Shown: positions 27,772 to 39,090, counted from the first letter of the stretch. The stretch: 64,000 bases of DNA from Candidatus Bathyarchaeota archaeon (GCA_963707955.1 OY970176.1:192001-256000), one strand, 5' to 3'. The notes: generated by a model not told the origin, from the sequence alone. Numbers and translations are program-made.

Positions 27772-28426
27772 ATGAAGCTAGTCATCTTTGGTCCTCCAGG
27801 TTCGGGGAAGGGCACGTATGCCTCGCGCTTACAGACAAGGCTAGGCATTGACATCATTGCAACAGGAGACATTCTTCGAGAGATCATGAGAGAGGATACC
27901 CCGTTGGGAAGGAAAGTCAAAGGTTTCGTAGAGAAGGGTCAGCTGGTTCCCGACGACGTAGTTATTCAAGTCCTTAAACAACGCTTGGACAAGTCTTCCG
28001 GCGAGAAAGGTTTCATCTTGGATGGCTTCCCGCGGACTATTGAGCAGGCCAAGGCTTTGGAGAAGTTTGTCAAGATCGATGGTGTCATTCAGCTGACGGT
28101 GCCTGACTGGATAATCATAGAGCGCTTGTCAAGCCGCAGAATATGCAAGAGACTGTGGAGAAGTGTATAACATACGCTTCTTGAAGCCCAAAGTCGAGGG
28201 GATATGTGACAAGTGCAGAGGGCAACTTTACCAGCGTTCTGACGACATGCCGGATGTGATCAAGGGCCGTATAGGCGTCTATGAACGTCAGACTGAACCC
28301 ATATTGCAGTACTATAAAGAGAAAGGGGTTCCGTTTGCAGAGTTTAAGTGTGAGTCCCTTGAACTGCCGCCTGAAGTGGCCGTTGATAGCATCCTTAAGC
28401 AGATAAGACAGTTGAAGCTAGCCTGA
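27772..28426 (+). CDS. adk: Adenylate kinase, bacterial-type with Zn-binding LID, +1 frameshift near 28150
   Basis: GPPGSGKGT, TGDILR, GQLVPD, ILDGFPR. RRIC.[fs].CGEVYN...CDKC..QLYQRSDD. Confidence 0.9.
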
Positions 28427-28956: not shown

Positions 28957-29148
28957 TTCTCAAATTCTCCTTGGGCCTATTTGCCGTATTTTTCTGATAA
29001 ACCTTGTTCTGCAGATTCCACTTTATTCTCTAAGAACATTGGTGTTTTTCACAAAGTCACTCTTCACAACGTCGGAACAGGCAAGTGCGTTACCATTACA
29101 ATGCATGGCCTCGTGAATGCTAGGCTAAAATTCAAGAGGGTGACTATG

Positions 29149-29943
29149 CTAAAGCTCAGCGACTTCTTTCTTTCTTATGCCAAGTTTTTCAGCGGCATCT
29201 GCAAATTCCTTTGTTGATTTTGGGCGGAAGATTATTTTGTTTGAGTGGAGCCTCGTTGCAAGTGACGTTATCCAGATTCGTGTTGACAATGGGTCCAGTA
29301 AGGAGATCGTGATCTGATCTTCCTTTTTCGGACGTACTGAAGGTATTGTCCAGAAACCTAGCAGGCGACGTTTGTTTTCCTGATTGATGCTGTACCCAAA
29401 AATCTGGTTCTGTTTATAGTGCTTATGAAAGTTTAGGAATGGGACTTCGACATAGAAGCCTTCGTTTGACAAGCATATTTTGACGTAGGCTAGGGCGAAT
29501 GAGAAGAAGACAGCGGCGACTGTTATTCCTATTACAACTGAGTAGAGCCATGGAAAGCTCTGAAAGTAAAAGGGTGCCTGAGAAATGGTGGCCAGTATGG
29601 GGGCCCAGAAGAGGAAGACCCATCTTCCCCCGACGTTCTGTTCAAATTGAATGGCTTCTAGGTAGGAAAGCTGTTTCCTTCTGTAGTTCGAGTGCAGGAT
29701 TAGCATAGTGCCGAGTAGAATCGGTATCGGTGCGTACATGAGCGCTGGGTGCGCGTATAATGGAGCGGTAACCAGCACATCTCCATACACGAAGTAGTTT
29801 GAGGGTTGTGTGATGTTGACCTTCCAGAGCCCACCTTCTGCGACTGGATAATCCGCGCTCACTGTCTCGTTTTGCATTTGCATGACACATGTTCCGTTCG
29901 GTGCGACAATCGTGACAGTGACTGGTTCAATCGGGCCCGCCAT
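29149..29943 (-). CDS. Hypothetical membrane protein, 5' end uncertain
   Basis: Three hydrophobic segments. The 5' end abuts repeat B1. Confidence 0.6.
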   Translation of the reverse strand: MAGPIEPVTVTIVAPNGTCVMQMQNETVSADYPVAEGGLWKVNITQPSNYFVYGDVLVTAPLYAHPALMYAPIPILLGTMLILHSNYRRKQLSYLEAIQFEQNVGGRWVFLFWAPILATISQAPFYFQSFPWLYSVVIGITVAAVFFSFALAYVKICLSNEGFYVEVPFLNFHKHYKQNQIFGYSINQENKRRLLGFWTIPSVRPKKEDQITISLLDPLSTRIWITSLATRLHSNKIIFRPKSTKEFADAAEKLGIRKKEVAEL

Positions 29944-29960
29944 CCACGGATCGCATTAGC

Positions 29961-30147
29961 GCGCTGTCTTGTCTCAAAATTCGCTGAAAACGCTTTTTCA
30001 AAGCATATACAAAAAGCATATACATTTTCATGTATCGTGTATATACAGTCAACGAGCAATGTTGAAAACGGTGGCACGGTTCATGTTGGATTCGGAGCCG
30101 TGTGGACTGTCCAGGTGGGCGCGTACAATAAAGGGGCAAGACAGCGC
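29961..30147. repeat. Dispersed structured repeat family B, copy 1 (MITE-like or ncRNA)
   Basis: Terminal inverted repeats GCGCTGTCTTGTCTC / GGGGCAAGACAGCGC and internal GCATATAC units. Homologous to 63428-63600 in inverted orientation. Confidence 0.75.
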
Positions 30148-30438
30148 CCTACGTAATGCCCCTTTCTTTCTCCATTTTATAGCTTCCTAAGCGTCTTTGA
30201 GCAAACCTTCAATTGGACTTTTCAGAATCAAACGTGCCAAGTCCAACTAGCGCCTCATCTTACTCACAGGTTGGTTCATTGCTGTTGTTTTTATGATTGC
30301 TCTATCCCGAAACCTAAAGCATCTTGTAAGACCCTTCTGCGCGCGCGAGCCAAGTGGTGCGACGCGACATACGTTTTACGTTTGGACACAAAATATTATA
30401 TATTAAGTCAAATGTAAAACAGCCTTGGGGGGGATGCT

Positions 30439-33400
30439 GTGGCTTCCTTCATGCATCAGCGCGGTAAAGTTTTTGGGATCGTGCTGTGCGTCTTGTTGGT
30501 CTTGTCCGTTTATCCTGGAATCGTGGGCGTGGTGAGTGAACTGTTCGGGAGCGGCTTTATCGAATCGATGAAACTGTCCGGTCGGTCTGGCCCGAGCAGT
30601 GAGAATCGGTTTGCGATGGGCGACACGATCAACGTTTCAGCCACGGTCACGCTTGGCAACTTCTACCAGTTGAACGTGTACGACAACAGCGACCGCTTGG
30701 TCTTTGAGGAGGACGGGGTGATGAAAGACTCCCACGTTAACGCCGCCGTGCCTATCCTTCCACCGTCCTTCAACGCGAGCCAAGCCTACAGCCTGGTCCT
30801 CGACGAGGGCGTCGTCAACACCCCTCTTCTCGGCGTGGGCGCCTATGACTCTTCCTCCACGGCCTTCACGGTCGTCCAGAGCCTGACGAACCTGAACCTA
30901 ACGTCAAGCTACAACGCGGTCACCCACGAGCTTCGAGCGGTGGTCCTCCTCACCACCAACGACTCTGTGCCCGTAGTAAACGAAACGGTCAGCCTCTACG
31001 TGCAGCCCGACTTGGACGTAGCCCTAAACAACAGGGGATGGATCTGCCTCGGCCAGTCCATGACGGACGCGAACGGAACAGCCCTGTTTGACGTTGCCGT
31101 CAACGCGAAAGGCGGCGCCTACGGGCTGCAGGCAAGGTTTGCAGGAGACAACAACTTCGAAGCATCCACGTCCCAGAACGCCACTCGGTTCGTTGAAGTC
31201 TCGCCAGCGCCGCTCCTACACATAGTAAACGTCCAGAGGGTTAAAAACGCCGTGACCACGCTTCTACAAGTCACCGACACGTACGGTTTTCCCCTCGGAG
31301 GAAGACTCATCAAGTACGAAGACTTAACCTCGGGTGAAGAACCCGTGTACGCGATCAGCAACGGCACTGGCTACGCCACCATAACCTTCAACGTCAACGC
31401 TTCCCTAAGCCTCGTCAACTCGAGACTCACAGTGCTGACAGACCCCTACACTTCAGAGCTTCAGGCCCTTGCAACGCTGAACCTGACGGGGCTAAACCCG
31501 TCCTTTGAAGCCCCGTCCGGCACGACCGGGGCTGAAGGACTGATATTAGGCGCCGCAGCCAAAGCGCCAGCTGACAACGCTTCTATCATGGACAGTCCGA
31601 CCTCTCCGGCGAGTGCGGGCTTGAACCAGACGGCCGTGAAATCCGCCGTCGTCCACGCAGCAAGCGACCTCCCCAGCATTAGTGTGAGCTTGAACAAGAA
31701 CCCAGCAGAGGCTGATCTGCCCGAAACATTCACAGTTCAGTTCGAATCGTCCACGTATCTCGGCGCGGTTCAGTTTAACTTTTACGAGAATGACTCCAAA
31801 CCACTCGGGTCGGCTGGAGCCACCGAAAAGACCTATCGTTTTCCCAACGACAACGGCGGTTTTACTTTCATATACAACTACTCGGGAAGTCTTGTGTGGG
31901 AACCGGACTATTATGGTGGATGCTGGCTCTTCGTGAACGCCACGAACTCCGGCGGGCTGGTAGCTCAGGGTTCCAGCGCCTCGTTCGTCATAAATCCTGC
32001 GCCAGTCAACCTGGTCGTTTATTATCCTGGAACGTTTTGCGGCGACACTTTGGACCTGTTCGTTGGCCTTTCTAGGTCGACCGTTTACGACCCAGAATCA
32101 TCTGGCTTCTACGAGTGCACGACGCTGGCGCCGAATATCCAGTGGGCGGGCAACACTTACATGCTTGACTGTGGAGACAACTCAACGCTGATTTACGTCT
32201 ACGTAAACGGCTCCGAAACCATCGTCTCCCCTAACCCCCAGTGCTTCTCCACGGTTCAGACTGATCTGAGTCCGTTGGGAAGTGGCGGGTGTCTGAACGT
32301 GACCGCATTCGTCAACGGCACAAACCGCTTCGAAGCGAAAACCGTGACCGACATCTTCAACTTGACAGAGACCAACGTTTCCGACGTGCCCTCCGCGGGC
32401 AGCGGCAACTTCGATTTGAACTATTCCCTCAGCGTCTCCGACGGTAACGAGACAACCTACTATGACACGCAAAACTCCGTTAACGTCACCGCCTCCCTGT
32501 TTGACTCTCCAGTCTACAACGCTTCAGCGACAGTCACCACCGCCAAACTCCTAAGCCGCTCAGCCACCAACAGCACCGGATGGGCATCTATACCCTCAGG
32601 CTGCAATTACCTCCGCGTACAATCCGCCTGCCTCCTTCAACCCAACATGGCTTCGCCCCTAGCAGACGTTGACCATAGCGGATTTGTTAACCAGCATGAT
32701 GAAATACTTGTAATGGAGCATGAGAACTCGACTATTGGCGATTCACTGTATGATTGGCGCTATGATCTCAACGGCGACGGCGCGATAAACCTGACTGACC
32801 AGGATATAGTTACTGCAAGCTCAAACTGGGGCCACAGCATTACGTATTTGGTTGCTGGGAATTGCACTGGTAGCTACAATGCTAATTATGATTTCAGTGG
32901 TGTGGAAGTTGATTTTAACACGGGCCAGAGGGCGTACTTGGACAGCCTCGGCTTCACAAGCGTTCCCGCCGGCGCGCAGTGGCTTAACATGTCGATTGGA
33001 GGCGTTGTAGAATTCTTTAATGCTCAACCGGCGCAGAACGCTTCCACCGACAACGTCGGCGTTGCCAGCATAGGCTGGCGTCCAGAGATTGTGGGATTGG
33101 ATGTTGTTCAGGCCAAGCTGCCCTCAACGTTCAACGTGACCGTGTCGAAGTCAGCCTCTCAGCCTAATTACGCGGAGGTGAACGCTTCTTTGAACGTTGC
33201 CAACTACTTCTACGTGCTGAAGAGACCTGTGGACATCACTGTTAACCTGAAACCGCTTAACGCCTCCTATCCTATGGGCGAATCGGGGAACATCACTATG
33301 AGCGAATTGGACCAAGTTACTGGACAACCAGTCCCATATTTGCCCTTCAACCTTAGCGTGTCGAGTCCGAATGGCAATGTGAATGACACTTGGAGTGAAG

Positions 33401-35223
33401 AGGGAACTTTTGACGGGTCTGGAACGAATGAGACGGTCTGCCCCATGCAGGGAAACTTTATTTACAACGTTAATGTTTCATGGGCAGACTTTGGGGACAA
33501 CGCTGCAGGCGCTTGCAGCAGCCTTTTCGATTTCAGGTGGCCCACGAACATCACATCGGAAGCTGGCAACGTGACAAACGCCTCAGAAGGCGAAAACGAG
33601 ACTCTCTATTTTCTTCTAACCAACGGCATCAACGGTGCGCGGGTGGGAGGGGAGCCTATCTGCTTCGACGTCAACGGCAGCTATTGCTATTGCAATGGCA
33701 CATCCTGGCCCTTTAGTGGCGTCTACTACGGCACAACCGTAGTGATCGGCGCTGTCGAGTTCAACTGGACGGTGCCGCCCTACGGCAGCGGGACGTACGA
33801 TGTGACTGCCATGTTTAACGGTGACACCAACTATTGCCCCTGCCAAACCAGCATGATCGTCAACGCCAGCGCTGTGCCCCTCGGAGTCTTGTTCAGCGTC
33901 ACACCAGACGAGTTTGAAAACGGAACCAACGTGCTGCTGAACGCCACCATCATAGACCCCTCCACAGGCGCGCCCTTCACAAGCCAGAACGTGAACGTCA
34001 ACTTCTACAACGTGGACTCGAACGGCGTCCAGCAGAAACTAGGCACGAACTCCACCGGCAACACTGGCATGGCCTTTTGGAGCCTGAACTACGCGAGCAA
34101 CGGGAACGCTTACGCCTACAAGGCCGATATAAACGCGGACTCCGTGAGCGGTGTTCTCCGTCAAGGCATCGCCAGCAGCCCAATCCAGCTCACCGTGGGC
34201 AACGCAACCGTGCTCCTGCTGAACGTTTCCCGAGGCATCTCTTCCACAAACCACACGATTGAGAGCCAACTGCTGAGCGATGGCACGGGCGTCCCGAACG
34301 AGACCGTGACCATCACCGTTAACGGCCAATCTTTTCAGAACAAGACAGACCCGAACGGCTACTTCAACGTGTCCATCGACCTCGAACCTGAATGCCCCAA
34401 CGGCACTACCGCGTACCAGAACGTTACCTACACGATAACAGCCAGCTTCGCAGGCGATAATCCCTCCAACGCCACCGCCTACGACAACACGCTAGACGGC
34501 TCCAGCTACGCCGAGTGCACTACCACACAGTACTGCTACGAACCCAGCACCAACACCACAGCACTAACTGTAAACCCACAGTCCACGCAGGCGACGACTG
34601 CGACAGAGACGCCTAAGCAGATGCAGCAGGATGCAAAAAGTAACGGATGCCTCAGCGTCTACAGCGAGTGGAGCTGGTGGTACCCCTGGTACCGATTGCA
34701 TTTCAAAATAACCATAAGCGACCCAACCACAATTGATGTTGGCGTTTCGTTTCTTCCAGGCGGGAGTACGCAGTCTAGTAAAGGACTGGGAATCTTCAAC
34801 CAGCTCGACGAAGAATTCGTTAAGTCGTTTGTAATAGATACGGGAACTTTGATGGGGGAATACGCATTGGCAAAAATCGGTTTTTGGTTCGGACAACCAT
34901 GGGTTGTAGCTGGAGCCTTTGTTGCTGAGGTTGCTGAAGATGGTTTTATATTAGGGTATTTTTGGAACAACGGGGGCGAGTTGCTTGCATTCGGAATAGT
35001 TAATATTATCATGGGCTTACTTGCAACTCAAGGAAATTTCGCGGCGAGCTTCTTGAACCTGTTGACCATGGTGACTACGGCGACGATGGCAGCCTTGCTG
35101 CTCATAACTACCGGTGCAATAGCGTCAGGAGGGTCATATATGTGGAACCCTGTTAACCCGTTTCAGGTTGGGTTGTCTTTTGCTTGTGCTGCTTTGGCTC
35201 TCGGTAGGTGGGCAGGACTGTGA
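30439..35223 (+). CDS. Giant secreted/surface protein with Ig-like repeats, a dockerin domain and a hydrophobic C-terminal tip
   Basis: N-terminal signal/TM, many N-x-S/T sequons, repeated A.F.GD and TD.NG motifs, dockerin-like pair ADVDHSGFVNQHD / YDLNGDGAINLTD, and a last ~140 aa that are hydrophobic. Confidence 0.85.
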   Translation: MASFMHQRGKVFGIVLCVLLVLSVYPGIVGVVSELFGSGFIESMKLSGRSGPSSENRFAMGDTINVSATVTLGNFYQLNVYDNSDRLVFEEDGVMKDSHVNAAVPILPPSFNASQAYSLVLDEGVVNTPLLGVGAYDSSSTAFTVVQSLTNLNLTSSYNAVTHELRAVVLLTTNDSVPVVNETVSLYVQPDLDVALNNRGWICLGQSMTDANGTALFDVAVNAKGGAYGLQARFAGDNNFEASTSQNATRFVEVSPAPLLHIVNVQRVKNAVTTLLQVTDTYGFPLGGRLIKYEDLTSGEEPVYAISNGTGYATITFNVNASLSLVNSRLTVLTDPYTSELQALATLNLTGLNPSFEAPSGTTGAEGLILGAAAKAPADNASIMDSPTSPASAGLNQTAVKSAVVHAASDLPSISVSLNKNPAEADLPETFTVQFESSTYLGAVQFNFYENDSKPLGSAGATEKTYRFPNDNGGFTFIYNYSGSLVWEPDYYGGCWLFVNATNSGGLVAQGSSASFVINPAPVNLVVYYPGTFCGDTLDLFVGLSRSTVYDPESSGFYECTTLAPNIQWAGNTYMLDCGDNSTLIYVYVNGSETIVSPNPQCFSTVQTDLSPLGSGGCLNVTAFVNGTNRFEAKTVTDIFNLTETNVSDVPSAGSGNFDLNYSLSVSDGNETTYYDTQNSVNVTASLFDSPVYNASATVTTAKLLSRSATNSTGWASIPSGCNYLRVQSACLLQPNMASPLADVDHSGFVNQHDEILVMEHENSTIGDSLYDWRYDLNGDGAINLTDQDIVTASSNWGHSITYLVAGNCTGSYNANYDFSGVEVDFNTGQRAYLDSLGFTSVPAGAQWLNMSIGGVVEFFNAQPAQNASTDNVGVASIGWRPEIVGLDVVQAKLPSTFNVTVSKSASQPNYAEVNASLNVANYFYVLKRPVDITVNLKPLNASYPMGESGNITMSELDQVTGQPVPYLPFNLSVSSPNGNVNDTWSEEGTFDGSGTNETVCPMQGNFIYNVNVSWADFGDNAAGACSSLFDFRWPTNITSEAGNVTNASEGENETLYFLLTNGINGARVGGEPICFDVNGSYCYCNGTSWPFSGVYYGTTVVIGAVEFNWTVPPYGSGTYDVTAMFNGDTNYCPCQTSMIVNASAVPLGVLFSVTPDEFENGTNVLLNATIIDPSTGAPFTSQNVNVNFYNVDSNGVQQKLGTNSTGNTGMAFWSLNYASNGNAYAYKADINADSVSGVLRQGIASSPIQLTVGNATVLLLNVSRGISSTNHTIESQLLSDGTGVPNETVTITVNGQSFQNKTDPNGYFNVSIDLEPECPNGTTAYQNVTYTITASFAGDNPSNATAYDNTLDGSSYAECTTTQYCYEPSTNTTALTVNPQSTQATTATETPKQMQQDAKSNGCLSVYSEWSWWYPWYRLHFKITISDPTTIDVGVSFLPGGSTQSSKGLGIFNQLDEEFVKSFVIDTGTLMGEYALAKIGFWFGQPWVVAGAFVAEVAEDGFILGYFWNNGGELLAFGIVNIIMGLLATQGNFAASFLNLLTMVTTATMAALLLITTGAIASGGSYMWNPVNPFQVGLSFACAALALGRWAGL

Positions 35224-35227
35224 TAGG

Positions 35228-35680
35228 GTGAGCGAGGCTGAATTGACGCTTGAAGAAAGAAACCATCTGTACACGCTGTGCGGTATGATGCTTCTCGTGG
35301 TGTCTTTTTCATTCTTAGCGTGGTTACTCTTTTTTGAGCAATCCAATTTTACGCGAGGCGGATGGAGCATGTTTATCTGGTTTGGGCTGCCTTACAGCAT
35401 CATCGGACCGACATCCTTTTTCCTAGCTTACGAGGCCTTTTACCCTAGAAGACTCAGAAGATCACACATGTTTCACCTGAAAAGATTTTTCCGCCGTACG
35501 CTCAGTTTGGCAGCCGTAATGGTGTCCTTCCCTGCAACTGTGTCTTTTTCTGAGGTCGCATTTTCCAAAACGTTGGGGAGCGAAGCTTTGTATCCAGGCA
35601 TGGTTTTGTGGGTTTTTGTGTTTTTTGCCGCTGTCCTTCTGTGGCTGAGGCGACAAAATTCGAGAAGTCCTAAATGGTGA
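35228..35680 (+). CDS. Small ~4-TM membrane protein (candidate immunity/partner protein)
   Basis: GTG start 4 nt after the stop of the giant gene. Four hydrophobic segments. Confidence 0.7.
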   Translation: MSEAELTLEERNHLYTLCGMMLLVVSFSFLAWLLFFEQSNFTRGGWSMFIWFGLPYSIIGPTSFFLAYEAFYPRRLRRSHMFHLKRFFRRTLSLAAVMVSFPATVSFSEVAFSKTLGSEALYPGMVLWVFVFFAAVLLWLRRQNSRSPKW

Positions 35681-35759
35681 AAACGATAGAATCAAACTTT
35701 AGCGTGTGCTAATCTTGTTTCCTTGCCTTTTGGTGCGTGTGATATCTCTCTCTGTCTCT

Positions 35760-36172
35760 CTATCTATGTCTAAGTAGTTGTCTGAGGCCATGCTTCTTTA
35801 ACAGTTGATTGTATCCTTCAAGCTTTGCGAGGACGATCTCTTTAGCAACCTGCAAGCCTTTCCCATTCTTCAGAGCTTTATACTGAGAGATCCGCGTTTT
35901 GACATTGCTGCCATCATCGAAACTTCTTAAGACTGCAACCGGATTACGGTTCTGCGTGAATATGTGAACCGATATGTTCCAGAATCCACCACAAGCAAGC
36001 GCTCCGGAGCTAATCAAGTTTTCATTTTTAACCTGTATCTCTGAAATCGCCTGTTCAAACATGGGATACTTTTCTGTCTTGCCGATTCTATCTTTCACGA
36101 CTGGACATCCTTTTGCATCCAGAGATATGAGCCGTAGCCGTTTAATGCGAGCTTTACGGTTTTGGTCTTCAT
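35760..36172 (-). pseudogene. cas1: N-terminal remnant of a solo/casposase-like Cas1
   Basis: MKTKTVKLALNGYGSYL.M.K[fs]..VKDRIGKTEKYPMFE...NLISSGALA.GFWNI....TQ..NPVAVL..FDDGSNVKTRISQY.ALKNGKG..VAK.IVLAKLEG.N.LLKK.GLR, then truncated. Confidence 0.75.
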
Positions 36173-36303
36173 CTTTAGCCTCTCTAATTATAATAAGGCT
36201 GAAATGTGGTTAATACACCTAGATAGAATAATCTTCCAGAAGCCATATCATGCAGAAATCTTAAATCAGCACAGCAACAGAGAACAAACTATGAGTGTGG
36301 ACA

Positions 36304-36690
36304 ATGATTCTAGCAAGCCAACAAAGGAGCGCGCGCGCTAGACTGGGATTAAGAAGAGCGCGTTGTCCTCTCTGTGGAGAAGAATTGCCTACTTACTCCG
36401 ACTATCAACAGCATGTGAAGACGAGGCATTATAATTTTTTATCTTGAATCGAGAAAAGGAACGAAAACCATGATATTGGCTGTTGCGTTAATGGCGGTTC
36501 TTACAACATCGTATGTAACGTATTTTATGAAACAACCATTGAGCCTTCTCAGTTCCTTGTTATTGTTCTCATGATAATTAGCATTGGAGCTGCTTTCTAC
36601 GTTATATGCCGACAACTACTTCTCTTTCAGAAATACAAAGAGACTCTAGACTTACCCAATAATTCTTTAGCTGTGATAAAGGATTCCTAG
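36304..36690 (+). pseudogene. Decayed C2H2 zinc finger plus transmembrane protein
   Basis: CPLCGEELPTYSDYQQHVKTRH at 36364-36429, a stop at 36445, then hydrophobic segments in shifted frames. Confidence 0.5.
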
Positions 36691-36810
36691 AGAACCACTC
36701 GCTCGGGGCCTGAATTTCATTGACATAACTGGAGTTGCCTTTGATTTCGTGCATTTCTGGCCATCGTTCGTTCCTTCACGGAGGGAAATCGTCCTAAGAA
36801 ACCCTCAAAC

Positions 36811-37420
36811 TCAAGGCGTCGCCAGCAGCCCAGTCCAGCTTACCGTAGCCAAGCCCACCGTGCTCCTGCTCAACGTTTCCCGAGCCAACTCTTCCATAAA
36901 CCACACGATTGAGAGCCAACTGCTGAGCGACGGCACAGGCGTCTCAAACGAGAACGTGGCCATCACCGTTAACGGCGAATCCTTCCAGAACACGACAGAC
37001 CAGAACGGCTACTTCAACCTGTCCCTTGACCTCCAACCAAAATGCCCCAATGGTCAAACCTCGTACCAGAACGTCACCTACACGATAACATCCAGCTTCG
37101 CAGGTGACCACCCCACCAACGCCACCGCCTACGACAACACGCTAGACGGAGAACAGTACGCAGCGTGCACAACCATTCAGTACGGCTACGAACCCAGCAG
37201 CAACACTACGGTACTGACCGTAACCCCACAATCAACATTAACAACGATGCTAACCGAAACGCCTGAAGAGATGCAGAAGCAAGAAGAGCAGAATGGAACT
37301 CTGAAGATTTACAACGAGTAGAGCTAGTGGTATCCATGGTACAGACTGCACTTTGTTGGGAATGGAATGGACAAACTCTGATTATAGTCGGTATTGCGGC
37401 TTTGCGATTTGCCGATATAG
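36811..37420 (+). pseudogene. Orphan partial copy of the giant surface protein (pre-tip region)
   Basis: 36811-37354 aligns without gaps to 34161-34704 (constant offset 2650 bp). Two TGG codons are TAG here (37319, 37325), and the sequence diverges after YRLHF. Confidence 0.9.
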
Positions 37421-37495
37421 GTTATCTTCTAGACTCGCCTTTGAAGGAAGAATGAAAGAGTGGCTCGGAAGCGCTCTCTTCTCTTATTCCACAAA

Positions 37496-38938
37496 TCAAG
37501 ATGTGCCTATTTCTTTCTTGAATACTTCCCCTAAGTCTTTTCCCCAGTTATCTAGGGCTTTGAGCTTTCCAAGGAAAAACCTGAGCACTGGCGGTTCGGA
37601 CACGAACTTCAAACCTTTCACTAGGTCTCTGTGCGTGTAAAGCCATTTTATCCTGTCAACTGCGTAGTCGATGTGCGACACCGTGTAGACTCTTCTGGGC
37701 AATGCGATTCTTGTTAGTTCTATGTCGGCAAAGACTTCTTTTCCTTCCTTGTTCCTGTCCATTGAAATTGTGCCTCTTTCCATGCTTCTTATTCCTGAGG
37801 CAATGTAAAGTCCGGCTGCGAGTGCTCCTGCTGGATATTGCGACTGAGGTATGTTTGGCAGAAACTTCATCGCGTCGAGATGGCATGCCAATCCGCCTGG
37901 CGGCGTGACTACTGGGATTCCAGCCTTGACAAGCTTGTTGACGAAGTATTTGATCTGTTCGACTGCGCAGCCTGCGACGTCTGGGTCTACCATTTCCCTC
38001 ATTCCGACGGCCATTGCGCCGACTTCTCTCATCGACATGCCGCCGTACGTGAAGAACCCTTCGTACACTGGGAGCCACGGTTGTATCTGCTCGAACAGTT
38101 TCTGATTGTTGGTTGCTATGCAGCCGCCTCTGACGCAGGTGTTTTTTCTTCCGCTCATATAATAAATGTCTGCGATGCTGCACATCTCTTTGACTATTTC
38201 CGCGACTGTCTTGTTCTCGTATGCTTTCTCTCGCTGTCTTATGAGGTAGGCGTTTTCACAGATCAGACTTCCGTCTATGACGAGAAGCAAGTCGTTCTCG
38301 GTGCAGATCTGTTTGATCTCCTTCAGGTTCTTCATCGAGAACGGTTGTCCACCGATCAGGTTGGTCGTTGCTTCCATTCGCACAAAGCCAATCTTGTCCT
38401 TGCCGTATTTCTTGATGACGTTCCTGAGCTTCTGCGGGTCCATACATCCTTTGAAGAGGTTTGTGCTCTCGGTTTTCAACGCATCATCATAATAGATCTC
38501 TAGAACCTGCATGCCTTGGAGCTCAATGTGAGCTTTCGTGGTCGTGAAGTGGTAGTTCGTGGGGATAACGCCGTCCGGTTTGGCGAAAACCTTTGCCAGG
38601 AGATGTTCCGCCGCTCTGCCTTGATGCACGTTCATCACGTACTTGTATCCAAGGACGTCTTCAACTGCTTTGGCAAACTCATAGAAAGTCATGCTGCCAG
38701 CGTAAGCATCATCAACTCTCATCATGCCAGCGAACTGGTTGTCGCTCATAGCGTTTACGCCGCTGTCCGTGAGCATGTCCAGAAATATGTCCTTAGTTTT
38801 AAGCAGGAACGTGTTGTAACCGGCCTCTTCGATGGCTCTGAGCCGTTGGTCAACAGGAACTAACTGGACTTTTTGCACCATTCTGGCCTTGTGCATCTCA
38901 ATCGGAATTTCCTCGCCTGAAGAAAGTCTGATAGACAT
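37496..38938 (-). CDS. PLP-dependent beta-eliminating lyase, tyrosine phenol-lyase-like (tryptophanase family)
   Basis: DMLTDSG, HQGRAAE, FTTT, MSGRK (PLP lysine), YEGF.TYGG, SMERG, PRRVYT, LRFF. Confidence 0.9.
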   Translation of the reverse strand: MSIRLSSGEEIPIEMHKARMVQKVQLVPVDQRLRAIEEAGYNTFLLKTKDIFLDMLTDSGVNAMSDNQFAGMMRVDDAYAGSMTFYEFAKAVEDVLGYKYVMNVHQGRAAEHLLAKVFAKPDGVIPTNYHFTTTKAHIELQGMQVLEIYYDDALKTESTNLFKGCMDPQKLRNVIKKYGKDKIGFVRMEATTNLIGGQPFSMKNLKEIKQICTENDLLLVIDGSLICENAYLIRQREKAYENKTVAEIVKEMCSIADIYYMSGRKNTCVRGGCIATNNQKLFEQIQPWLPVYEGFFTYGGMSMREVGAMAVGMREMVDPDVAGCAVEQIKYFVNKLVKAGIPVVTPPGGLACHLDAMKFLPNIPQSQYPAGALAAGLYIASGIRSMERGTISMDRNKEGKEVFADIELTRIALPRRVYTVSHIDYAVDRIKWLYTHRDLVKGLKFVSEPPVLRFFLGKLKALDNWGKDLGEVFKKEIGTS

Positions 38939-39090
38939 AATGGAAACCTCAAGAGTTTGCTCTTATCACGTTTACGTTTTTATAATCCTTTCGGTCTAAC
39001 ATTCTTGTTCGATCATCGTCAATTTTCTCACCAAAAGCTATATGTGAAAGGTTAAGACTGTGAGGATTTTCAACAAGTCTGAGGAGAAGT

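Follow-up and report, generated by a model that had tools for sequence, protein, structure and literature searches.

A polymorphic stalk, tip and partner gene system in Bathyarchaeia, a candidate membrane-targeting toxin/immunity locus

We analyzed a stretch of 64,000 nucleotides from a Candidatus Bathyarchaeota archaeon (GCA_963707955.1 OY970176.1:192001-256000), here called the window. It contains a gene for a large secreted surface protein with a variable C-terminus (the tip), a small membrane-protein gene directly behind it (the partner) and a decayed second copy of the region preceding the tip (pre-tip). Coordinates are window positions. G000 is the genome of the window, A1 is the window gene, and A2, O1 and O2 are copies found at a second locus (L010). 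The window holds one of two G000 loci of a lineage-specific stalk, tip and partner system. The intact part of the locus has the following features:

30439..35223, plus strand: main gene for a secreted, immunoglobulin (Ig)-like stalk protein of 1594 amino acids (aa) ending in the variable tip (open reading frame, ORF, and translation)
32662..32814, plus strand: dockerin-like module in the stalk, aa 742-792 (Dockerin_1 matches)
34161..34704, plus strand: pre-tip region, first copy of a 544-bp repeat, conserved among paralogues and orphans (repeat search)
34669..34704, plus strand: boundary motif WSWWYPWYRLHF, conserved also at the DNA level (TGGAGCTGGTGGTAYCCNTGGTAYMG)
34705..35220, plus strand: variable C-terminal tip of 172 aa (structure model, composition and profile search)
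35228..35680, plus strand: partner gene for a 150-aa membrane protein with a central loop rich in lysine and arginine (K/R), candidate immunity protein (ORF and homologues)

The secreted Ig-like/dockerin protein of 1594 aa, described in an earlier note on this DNA, was recovered as the ORF at 30439-35223. It has a signal-like hydrophobic peak at aa 14-32 (Kyte-Doolittle hydropathy, KD, 2.72), and the first 1410 residues, the stalk, contain 60 N-x-S/T sequons. Its domain matches are weak. Big_3_5 (Pfam) was matched with an E-value of 3.4e-7 and 31.2 bits, below the cut-off of 35.5, and Dockerin_1 (PF00404) with 18.1 bits by hmmscan, below the cut-off of 22.9. The same dockerin stretch scored 25.3 bits in a six-frame search of the genome (G000:C1:224662-224814), which is over the cut-off, as were the Dockerin_1 matches in the homologues P0006 (40.8 bits) and P0031 (24.8 bits). 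Long homologues were found to match Dockerin_1, Big_1, Big_3_5 and MG4, several of them over cut-off, and CBM96 was present in three of five long homologues tested. Genome-wide, dockerin was matched 18 times in G000 (15 over cut-off) and cohesin twice (G000:C1:2213510-2213818 and 475691-476032), which suggests that this Bathyarchaeia genome encodes a surface network based on cohesin and dockerin.

The composition break that the earlier note had seen after WSWWYPWYRLHF was confirmed by four measures: GC, GC at third codon positions (GC3), glycine and alanine content and sequon count. From stalk to tip, GC fell from 0.553 to 0.472 and GC3 from 0.692 to 0.465, the neighbouring genes having a GC3 of 0.58-0.60. 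The tip is 25% glycine plus alanine, is net acidic, has few K/R residues and lacks sequons. Charged residues make up 9-16% with no positive-inside pattern, and each tip has two to five hydrophobic helices depending on the threshold; in the window tip two pass a transmembrane (TM) threshold. Since it is net acidic, poor in K/R, free of sequons and has only two TM-grade helices, the tip is unlike a standard polytopic anchor. The boundary itself is conserved in DNA: when eight copies of the motif from five loci were aligned, the per-column consensus was mostly at least 0.9 across the motif and dropped after it. Such conservation is to be expected for the run of tryptophans (W), which have a single codon (TGG) without synonyms. 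The W-rich motif may thereby offer a plausible crossover site for tip exchange.

The gene of about four TM segments that had been reported 4 nt after the stop codon was also recovered. It starts with a GTG at 35228, 4 nt past the TGA ending at 35223, and this start is backed by 13 homologues beginning MSEAEL or MTEAEL. The protein has four hydrophobic peaks (KD 2.36, 1.35, 1.57 and 2.29). It has 14 homologues of 56-100% identity, none with a Pfam domain; in their alignment E69, R86 and R90 are invariant and the extracellular loops are short. Among all partners described below, no match to Pfam or PADLOC was found.

The second locus (L010) lies on the same 2.35-Mb contig as the window and has four elements. 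A2 is a full-length paralogue that shares 76% identity with the window gene over aa 1-1450 and ends in a different tip with the motif W.GPG.W.TWFK, a glycine-rich tail and no match to the tip profile. The A2 tip (L010 7300-7942, G000:C1:~2123300-2123941) is frameshifted relative to three intact homologues found in metagenomic sequences (P0161-P0163), and the ORF of its partner, a 184-aa multi-TM gene, is open despite the frameshifted tip. O1 is a 478-aa copy, truncated at the 5' end (aa 1061 onward), that carries WSWWYPWYRVHY and another tip. The O1 partner (L010 10342-11112) starts 4 nt past the O1 stop and encodes a six-TM protein of 256 aa, an internal duplication of a unit of about 125 aa in which each half matches a 150-aa partner from the relative G059. 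O2 is a decayed orphan fragment; it contains one TAG, and its tip is truncated. G000 also has a stand-alone homologue of the O1-class partner.

Comparison of these copies locates the boundary. Identity drops at the motif (aa ~1400-1425) from 70-80% to 16-36% between A1 and A2, and from 82-95% to 18-25% between A1 and O1, and the drop in GC3 falls at the same place. In line with the proposal that WYPWYRLHF marks an exchange boundary, one kind of stalk was found to continue into different tips behind a shared W-rich motif. Over aa 1161-1360 (window 33919-34518) A1 and O1 have 82-95% amino acid identity, higher than the flanks on either side, an indication that gene conversion has recently acted between the loci. 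Stalk and tip were found to be discordant in both directions: A1 and A2 have 76% identical stalks and unrelated tips, while A1 and the protein P0008 have stalks of 31% and tips of 66% identity.

A tip profile was built from six tips and run against 1.84 billion (1.84e9) representatives. It matched 142 clusters at E<=1e-3, of which at least three (P0085, P0128 and P0138) look like unrelated repeat proteins, and 90 clusters at E<=1e-10. The tip domain ended at most 20 residues from the C-terminus in 33 of the 34 matches at E<=1e-30. The lone exception, a metagenomic protein of 673 aa (P0024), has a stalk fragment, an O1-class tip and a partner-like multi-TM part in one ORF, which may be a genuine fusion or may result from a frameshift in the record. 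The nine carriers seen at a length of at least 1500 aa (1505-1892 aa) all have the same stalk design. For clustering of the tips by BLAST we used 75 sequences, seven of them locus ORFs and 68 from a set of 145 proteins in which 69 lacked the motif pattern and 8 had fewer than 120 aa after the motif. The 75 tips fell into seven classes at E<=1e-10 and formed one cluster at E<=1e-3.

The distribution of the tip family is sporadic, and in this analysis it was found only in Bathyarchaeia. With the last 354 aa of the window protein as query, matches were obtained in 5 of 60 relatives. The tip profile gave matches in 5 of 400 genomes sampled across the class, all five in two families of one order. 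The A2-type tip had one weak match (E 3.1e-4) in 250 genomes of the order and none in the genus of the relative G029.

The relatives also contain orphan cassettes, as the earlier note had anticipated: truncated stalk-tip-partner cassettes were found downstream of full genes or alone in G000 and its relatives. In G029, two truncated cassettes stand in tandem, both with a partner of their own, and adjoin a third partner-type gene and EF-1alpha. The third partner, beside EF-1alpha, is of the A2 class and has no cognate tip, and one more class-I partner stands alone on another contig. In this genome, which is estimated to be 100% complete, no full-length carrier was found with P0001 as query. The ratio of nonsynonymous to synonymous substitution rates (dN/dS) for its two orphan tips was about 0.11 at saturated dS. 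In G003, G059 and G236 a long gene is followed by fragments and extra partners, and G003 has one partner without a tip ahead of it.

Partners were found to accompany tips closely. A directly adjacent partner on the same strand was present for 10 of 11 tip ORFs, at a gap of -55 to +12 nt and with a length of 146-256 aa. These partners have 3-6 hydrophobic segments at KD >= 1.6 (2 in the extended ORF of the window). The eleventh tip ORF (L029) stood outside the pairing analysis; its tip breaks off at profile position 140, and close by there is no start of an ORF of at least 80 aa. Genes homologous to the window partner sit behind class-I tips in G029 (two copies), G003 and G013. In general partner class follows tip class, with a Spearman correlation of 0.45 between the similarity matrices (Mantel p 0.0037, n=10 pairs), so that the co-variation of tip and next gene, which had been suggested as a check, was observed.

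Altogether, these comparisons of sequences show polymorphic, recombining tip-partner cassettes on a conserved surface stalk, with displaced orphans. Recombination in the conserved pre-tip and motif DNA appears to carry the tip together with its partner from one divergent stalk to another. Because the tips vary, the partners match them in class, cassettes recur and the histories of stalk and tip disagree, the locus was found to be neither a case of one conserved C-terminus nor an isolated duplication, two of the outcomes that the earlier note had named as speaking against its proposal.

Downstream of the partner gene the window contains only decayed elements up to the next gene:

35760..36209, minus strand: N-terminal fragment of Cas1, pseudogene (Pfam Cas_Cas1 E 1.3e-10; NCBIfam and PADLOC agree)
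36292..36690, plus strand: decayed small gene or genes, a frame-broken C2H2 zinc-finger ORF and short TM ORFs (ORFs and six-frame reading)
36811..37354, plus strand: orphaned pre-tip fragment, second copy of the repeat, pseudogene (repeat search, TAG stops and dN/dS)
37355..37495, plus strand: remainder after the motif of the orphan, with no recognisable tip and no partner gene (tip profile and ORFs)

The 544-bp repeat that had been noticed 2650 bp downstream and ending at the same motif was found in register, at a spacing of 2650, with 87% identity between 34161-34460 and 36811-37110 and 71% between 34507-34703 and 37157-37353. The second copy had been taken for an orphan tip cassette, and this part of the proposal did not hold. 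Its motif reads NE*S*WYPWYRLHF, a detail absent from the earlier note: two changes from TGG to TAG have created stops at 37319-37321 and 37325-37327. The dN/dS of the second copy relative to the first was 1.48 over 173 codons. The match of the tip profile was confined to profile positions 1-17, which is the motif, and the continuation 'WNGQTLIIVGIAAL' proposed for this copy requires a +1 frame change. Only 141 nt remain after the copy before a convergent beta-eliminating-lyase gene (37496-38938, minus strand). Because of the stops in the motif, the motif-only profile match and the 141 nt left before the next gene, the second copy is an orphaned stalk fragment, which is dead and has no recognisable tip or partner. 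Recoding of TAG as pyrrolysine was ruled out as an explanation for the stops, since TAG ends 219 of 655 ORFs of at least 350 codons.

As for the DNA between the copies, the decayed zinc-finger/TM gene that the earlier note had placed there was found (zf-C2H2_4 on ORF 36295-36447, E 1.4e-4, below cut-off), and the note had overlooked the Cas1 fragment. This fragment corresponds to Pfam profile positions 32-120 of 283 (about 20-120 of about 290-330 overall) and is without the catalytic C-terminal part. A homologue of 45% identity is present at G000:C1:2258403-2258726. It may have come in as cargo with the DNA of the present tip, or may be what is left of a casposon or CRISPR system. The layout would fit the outcome of a single crossover within the pre-tip homology. 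An incoming circular piece would in that case have carried a pre-tip fragment, tip, partner and cargo, and the old 3' end would have been displaced and then have decayed.

Four metagenome DNA runs from one study were compared with the window. Metagenome contigs supported the arrangement from 34545 to 36927 (record 6 of X1, possibly the source sample itself). In X1, a loose end at 34697 was considered as an alternative tip on the same stalk and dropped, as it corresponded to the O2 paralogue of the same genome. An A-rich piece of about 38 nt at 36254-36291 was common to several contigs in all four runs, with unlike flanks, and may represent low-complexity sequence or else a small dispersed element.

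We proceeded to model the tip. An AlphaFold2 (AF2) model based on a 44-sequence alignment reached a pLDDT of 84.4 and a pTM of 0.71; an earlier model from 6 sequences was unusable (pLDDT 45.5). In the model, residues 2-42 fold into a four-stranded beta-sheet whose first strands are made by the motif, and six to seven helices come after it. Most of the acidic residues lie on the two leading long helices, and the next four are hydrophobic. With this model Foldseek gave no match at E<=1e-3 in PDB or BFVD, and a wide VIA-align search gave generic designed helical bundles only (best Z 9.2). By sequence, the tip matched no Pfam family at E<=0.01, the colicin pore-forming domain included, no PDB chain at E<=1 with the profile of 44 sequences, and nothing in PADLOC. 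The ESM Atlas gave only sub-threshold leads, which were not used; one was a cluster from Bacillota with PT-TG (rank 28, score 0.83). The likeness to colicin-type pore-formers that the earlier note had envisaged was consequently not recovered in sequence or fold. The ten-helix globin-like fold of colicins, with its buried hydrophobic hairpin, was absent from the matches listed by Foldseek and VIA-align, a missing match that is compatible with a related fold. A prediction of the tip-partner complex, with an own alignment for each chain, scored 0.00 with a poorly folded partner and carries no weight either way.

With a probability of roughly 45%, we read the locus as a Bathyarchaeia-specific polymorphic system of the membrane-targeting toxin/immunity type, for which toxicity, delivery and immunity are predicted functions. 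The tip would be a membrane-inserting toxin, a helical bundle of two amphipathic acidic and four hydrophobic helices. Placed at the end of a surface fibre, it would on contact enter the membrane of a neighbouring cell and dissipate its ion gradient. The downstream membrane protein would be the cognate immunity factor and neutralise the tip in the membrane of the producer and its kin, and the orphan cassettes and stand-alone partner genes would represent a reserve of tips and acquired immunity. We prefer a toxin because partners persist without tips, because cassettes that lack a carrier are under purifying selection, because a broken tip is found with an intact partner, and because the tip is not anchor-like.

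Several observations weigh against this reading. All tips belong to one superfamily and are found on one carrier type only, which fits a diversifying structural module as well as it fits a toxin. A protein exported by the Sec pathway with hydrophobic helices at its C-terminus would lodge by default in the membrane of the producer, as an anchor does. The orphan in the window has no tip. Neighbouring genes would co-vary through linkage alone, and the 10 tip-partner pairs are not independent. No resemblance to colicins, other pore-formers or toxins was found by Pfam, PDB profile, Foldseek, VIA-align or BFVD.

An alternative, which we consider somewhat unlikely, is that the protein anchors itself and the partner assists it. 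Archaeal surface proteins of the surface-layer (S-layer) type have an N-terminal signal, a sequon-rich ectodomain and a hydrophobic C-terminal membrane anchor, and the window protein shares the signal, the sequon-rich ectodomain and the hydrophobic C-terminus. The tip would then be the membrane-embedded base of the stalk, with motif and sheet at the membrane surface. Within the same cell the four-TM protein would act as a dedicated receptor, insertase or stabiliser; the classes would keep paralogous pairs apart, and the orphans would be neutral scars of recombination among paralogues. Such a role accords with the finding that full-length members all end in one domain superfamily which no other carrier has, with a motif that belongs to the folded tip domain and not to a linker, with the two to five hydrophobic helices per tip and their default fate in Sec export, and with an orphan in the window that is plainly dead. 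The partner, moreover, is a standard polytopic protein with a K/R-rich loop. Weak Foldseek matches of the tip to claudin/TARP-type four-helix membrane proteins with an extracellular sheet (prob <= 0.08) are a hint only. An anchor does not, on the other hand, account well for partner genes that persist without a cognate tip or for intact tip-plus-partner cassettes kept in a genome without a detected full-length stalk. The tip is a multi-helical, acidic, polymorphic module of about 175 aa, 9-16% charged and without a positive-inside pattern, and it has a cognate gene and orphan cassettes, unlike S-layer-type anchors; Pfam and NCBIfam scans of the main protein gave no match to PGF-CTERM or a similar family. 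The dockerin module and the cohesins of the genome offer another means of surface attachment, and neither the drop in identity at the motif nor the mosaic histories are needed for a plain anchor.

Among known toxins, the pore-forming colicins have immunity proteins with 3-4 TM segments. The TspA/TsaI and EsxX systems of S. aureus are described as membrane-depolarising or pore-forming competition toxins with polytopic membrane proteins for immunity. The toxin reading finds parallels in both: a hydrophobic, Gly/Ala-rich helical C-terminus followed by a small membrane-protein gene, polymorphism, and recombination between tandem paralogues. Unlike them, the window tip opens with a beta-sheet; it matched none of them in sequence or fold, and its membrane activity is predicted. 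The locus also differs from contact-dependent inhibition (CDI; CdiB/CdiA/CdiI), as Pfam and NCBIfam gave no match of the main protein to a two-partner secretion (TPS) domain, FHA repeats, the VENN pretoxin motif or CdiB; its motif is WSWWYPWYRLH and the neighbouring genes are unrelated. Nor does it belong to the Rhs/YD toxins, which have a YD/RHS repeat shell and a DPxGL boundary, the window protein having no RHS/YD repeat match in Pfam or NCBIfam. Overall, the scans of the 1594-aa protein with these two databases gave no TPS, FHA, RHS, LXG or PT-domain match.

The parallels with polymorphic toxin systems as a whole (CdiA-CT/CdiI, Rhs and MafB) are broader. As outlined in the accessible text of a survey of these systems by Zhang et al. 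(2012), they share with the window system a large secreted filament-like protein, a conserved N-terminal part, a boundary motif, a variable C-terminus, an adjacent co-varying gene, orphans truncated at the 5' end, mosaicism and sporadic spread (PMC3482391). The same text describes many unrelated enzymatic toxins across secretion systems, whereas here a single tip superfamily is found on a single carrier (PMC3482391). The locus accordingly has a stalk and variable C-terminus with a sharp boundary, an adjacent co-varying gene and orphan cassettes, and it lacks the diverse unrelated toxin domains that are shared among delivery architectures. Its archaeal host, its Sec-type signal and the predicted status of its functions further set it apart from classical polymorphic toxins. 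These have been described, in the part of the survey available, in few archaea (some methanogens and haloarchaea) and were judged to be bacterial in origin (PMC3482391).

The closest archaeal parallel is VARTIG of the Thermococcales. According to the accessible part of its description, it has a large secreted multi-Ig protein, a hypervariable C-terminus made by recombination and variable downstream genes, an organisation likened there to polymorphic toxin systems (PMC8416519). The variable part of VARTIG is the C-terminal Ig domain of an arCOG07710 protein and some of its downstream genes encode Ig proteins, whereas the window locus has a beta-sheet with hydrophobic helices and multi-TM partners (PMC8416519). 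The VARTIG family arCOG07710 and the window stalk are set apart here by architecture. Three search strategies are stated in that text to have found no counterpart of VARTIG outside Thermococcales, and archaeal polymorphic toxin systems are stated to have been predicted so far without experimental characterisation (PMC8416519). Our literature search found no paper on the tip family, and an earlier listing in the 2019 mBio survey of archaeal polymorphic toxins or in supplementary tables is possible. We tentatively propose, as something that may hold, a home-grown form of contact-dependent competition in Bathyarchaeia that is unrelated to the bacterial systems and consists of a Sec-exported, glycosylated Ig/dockerin fibre, a new family of membrane-inserting toxins and a cognate polytopic immunity protein for each of them, with tips exchanged through recombination at the W-rich motif.

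Quite improbable, in our view, is a non-toxic role in kin or self recognition, adhesion or fusion, in which the tip would meet the partner of a neighbour and cells with matching pairs, unlike those with non-matching ones, would aggregate, exchange or fuse, the polymorphism marking identity as it does in some bacterial identity systems: polymorphic pairs and a sporadic distribution fit it as well as they fit toxin and immunity, the stalk is an adhesin-like Ig/dockerin fibre with CBM96 in some homologues, and self/non-self discrimination is named among the hypotheses for the analogous archaeal Ig module in the available text on VARTIG (PMC8416519), but the variable part is hydrophobic and free of sequons and so not an exposed recognition surface, the extracellular loops of the partner are only short, and stand-alone partners are more easily explained as protection. 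On present data recognition and toxicity cannot be separated.

Little is known about competition or recognition among uncultured sediment archaea. The locus defines a compact family of two-gene cassettes with at least seven classes and 142 sequence clusters, and the W-rich motif, if it serves as a recombination site, would account for the exchange of tips between stalks. Should the tip be a toxin, it would represent a new membrane-active fold together with a new immunity family; should it be an anchor, tip and partner would be a pair that holds archaeal surface fibres in place and, unusually, co-evolves.

An Rfam scan of 29000-39000 gave no match. Upstream of the main gene, an adenylate-kinase-like gene at 27772-28426 (plus strand) appears to be split into two overlapping ORFs of 132 aa and 87 aa. 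The split falls in the Cys-rich lid region and reflects a frameshift or an assembly error.

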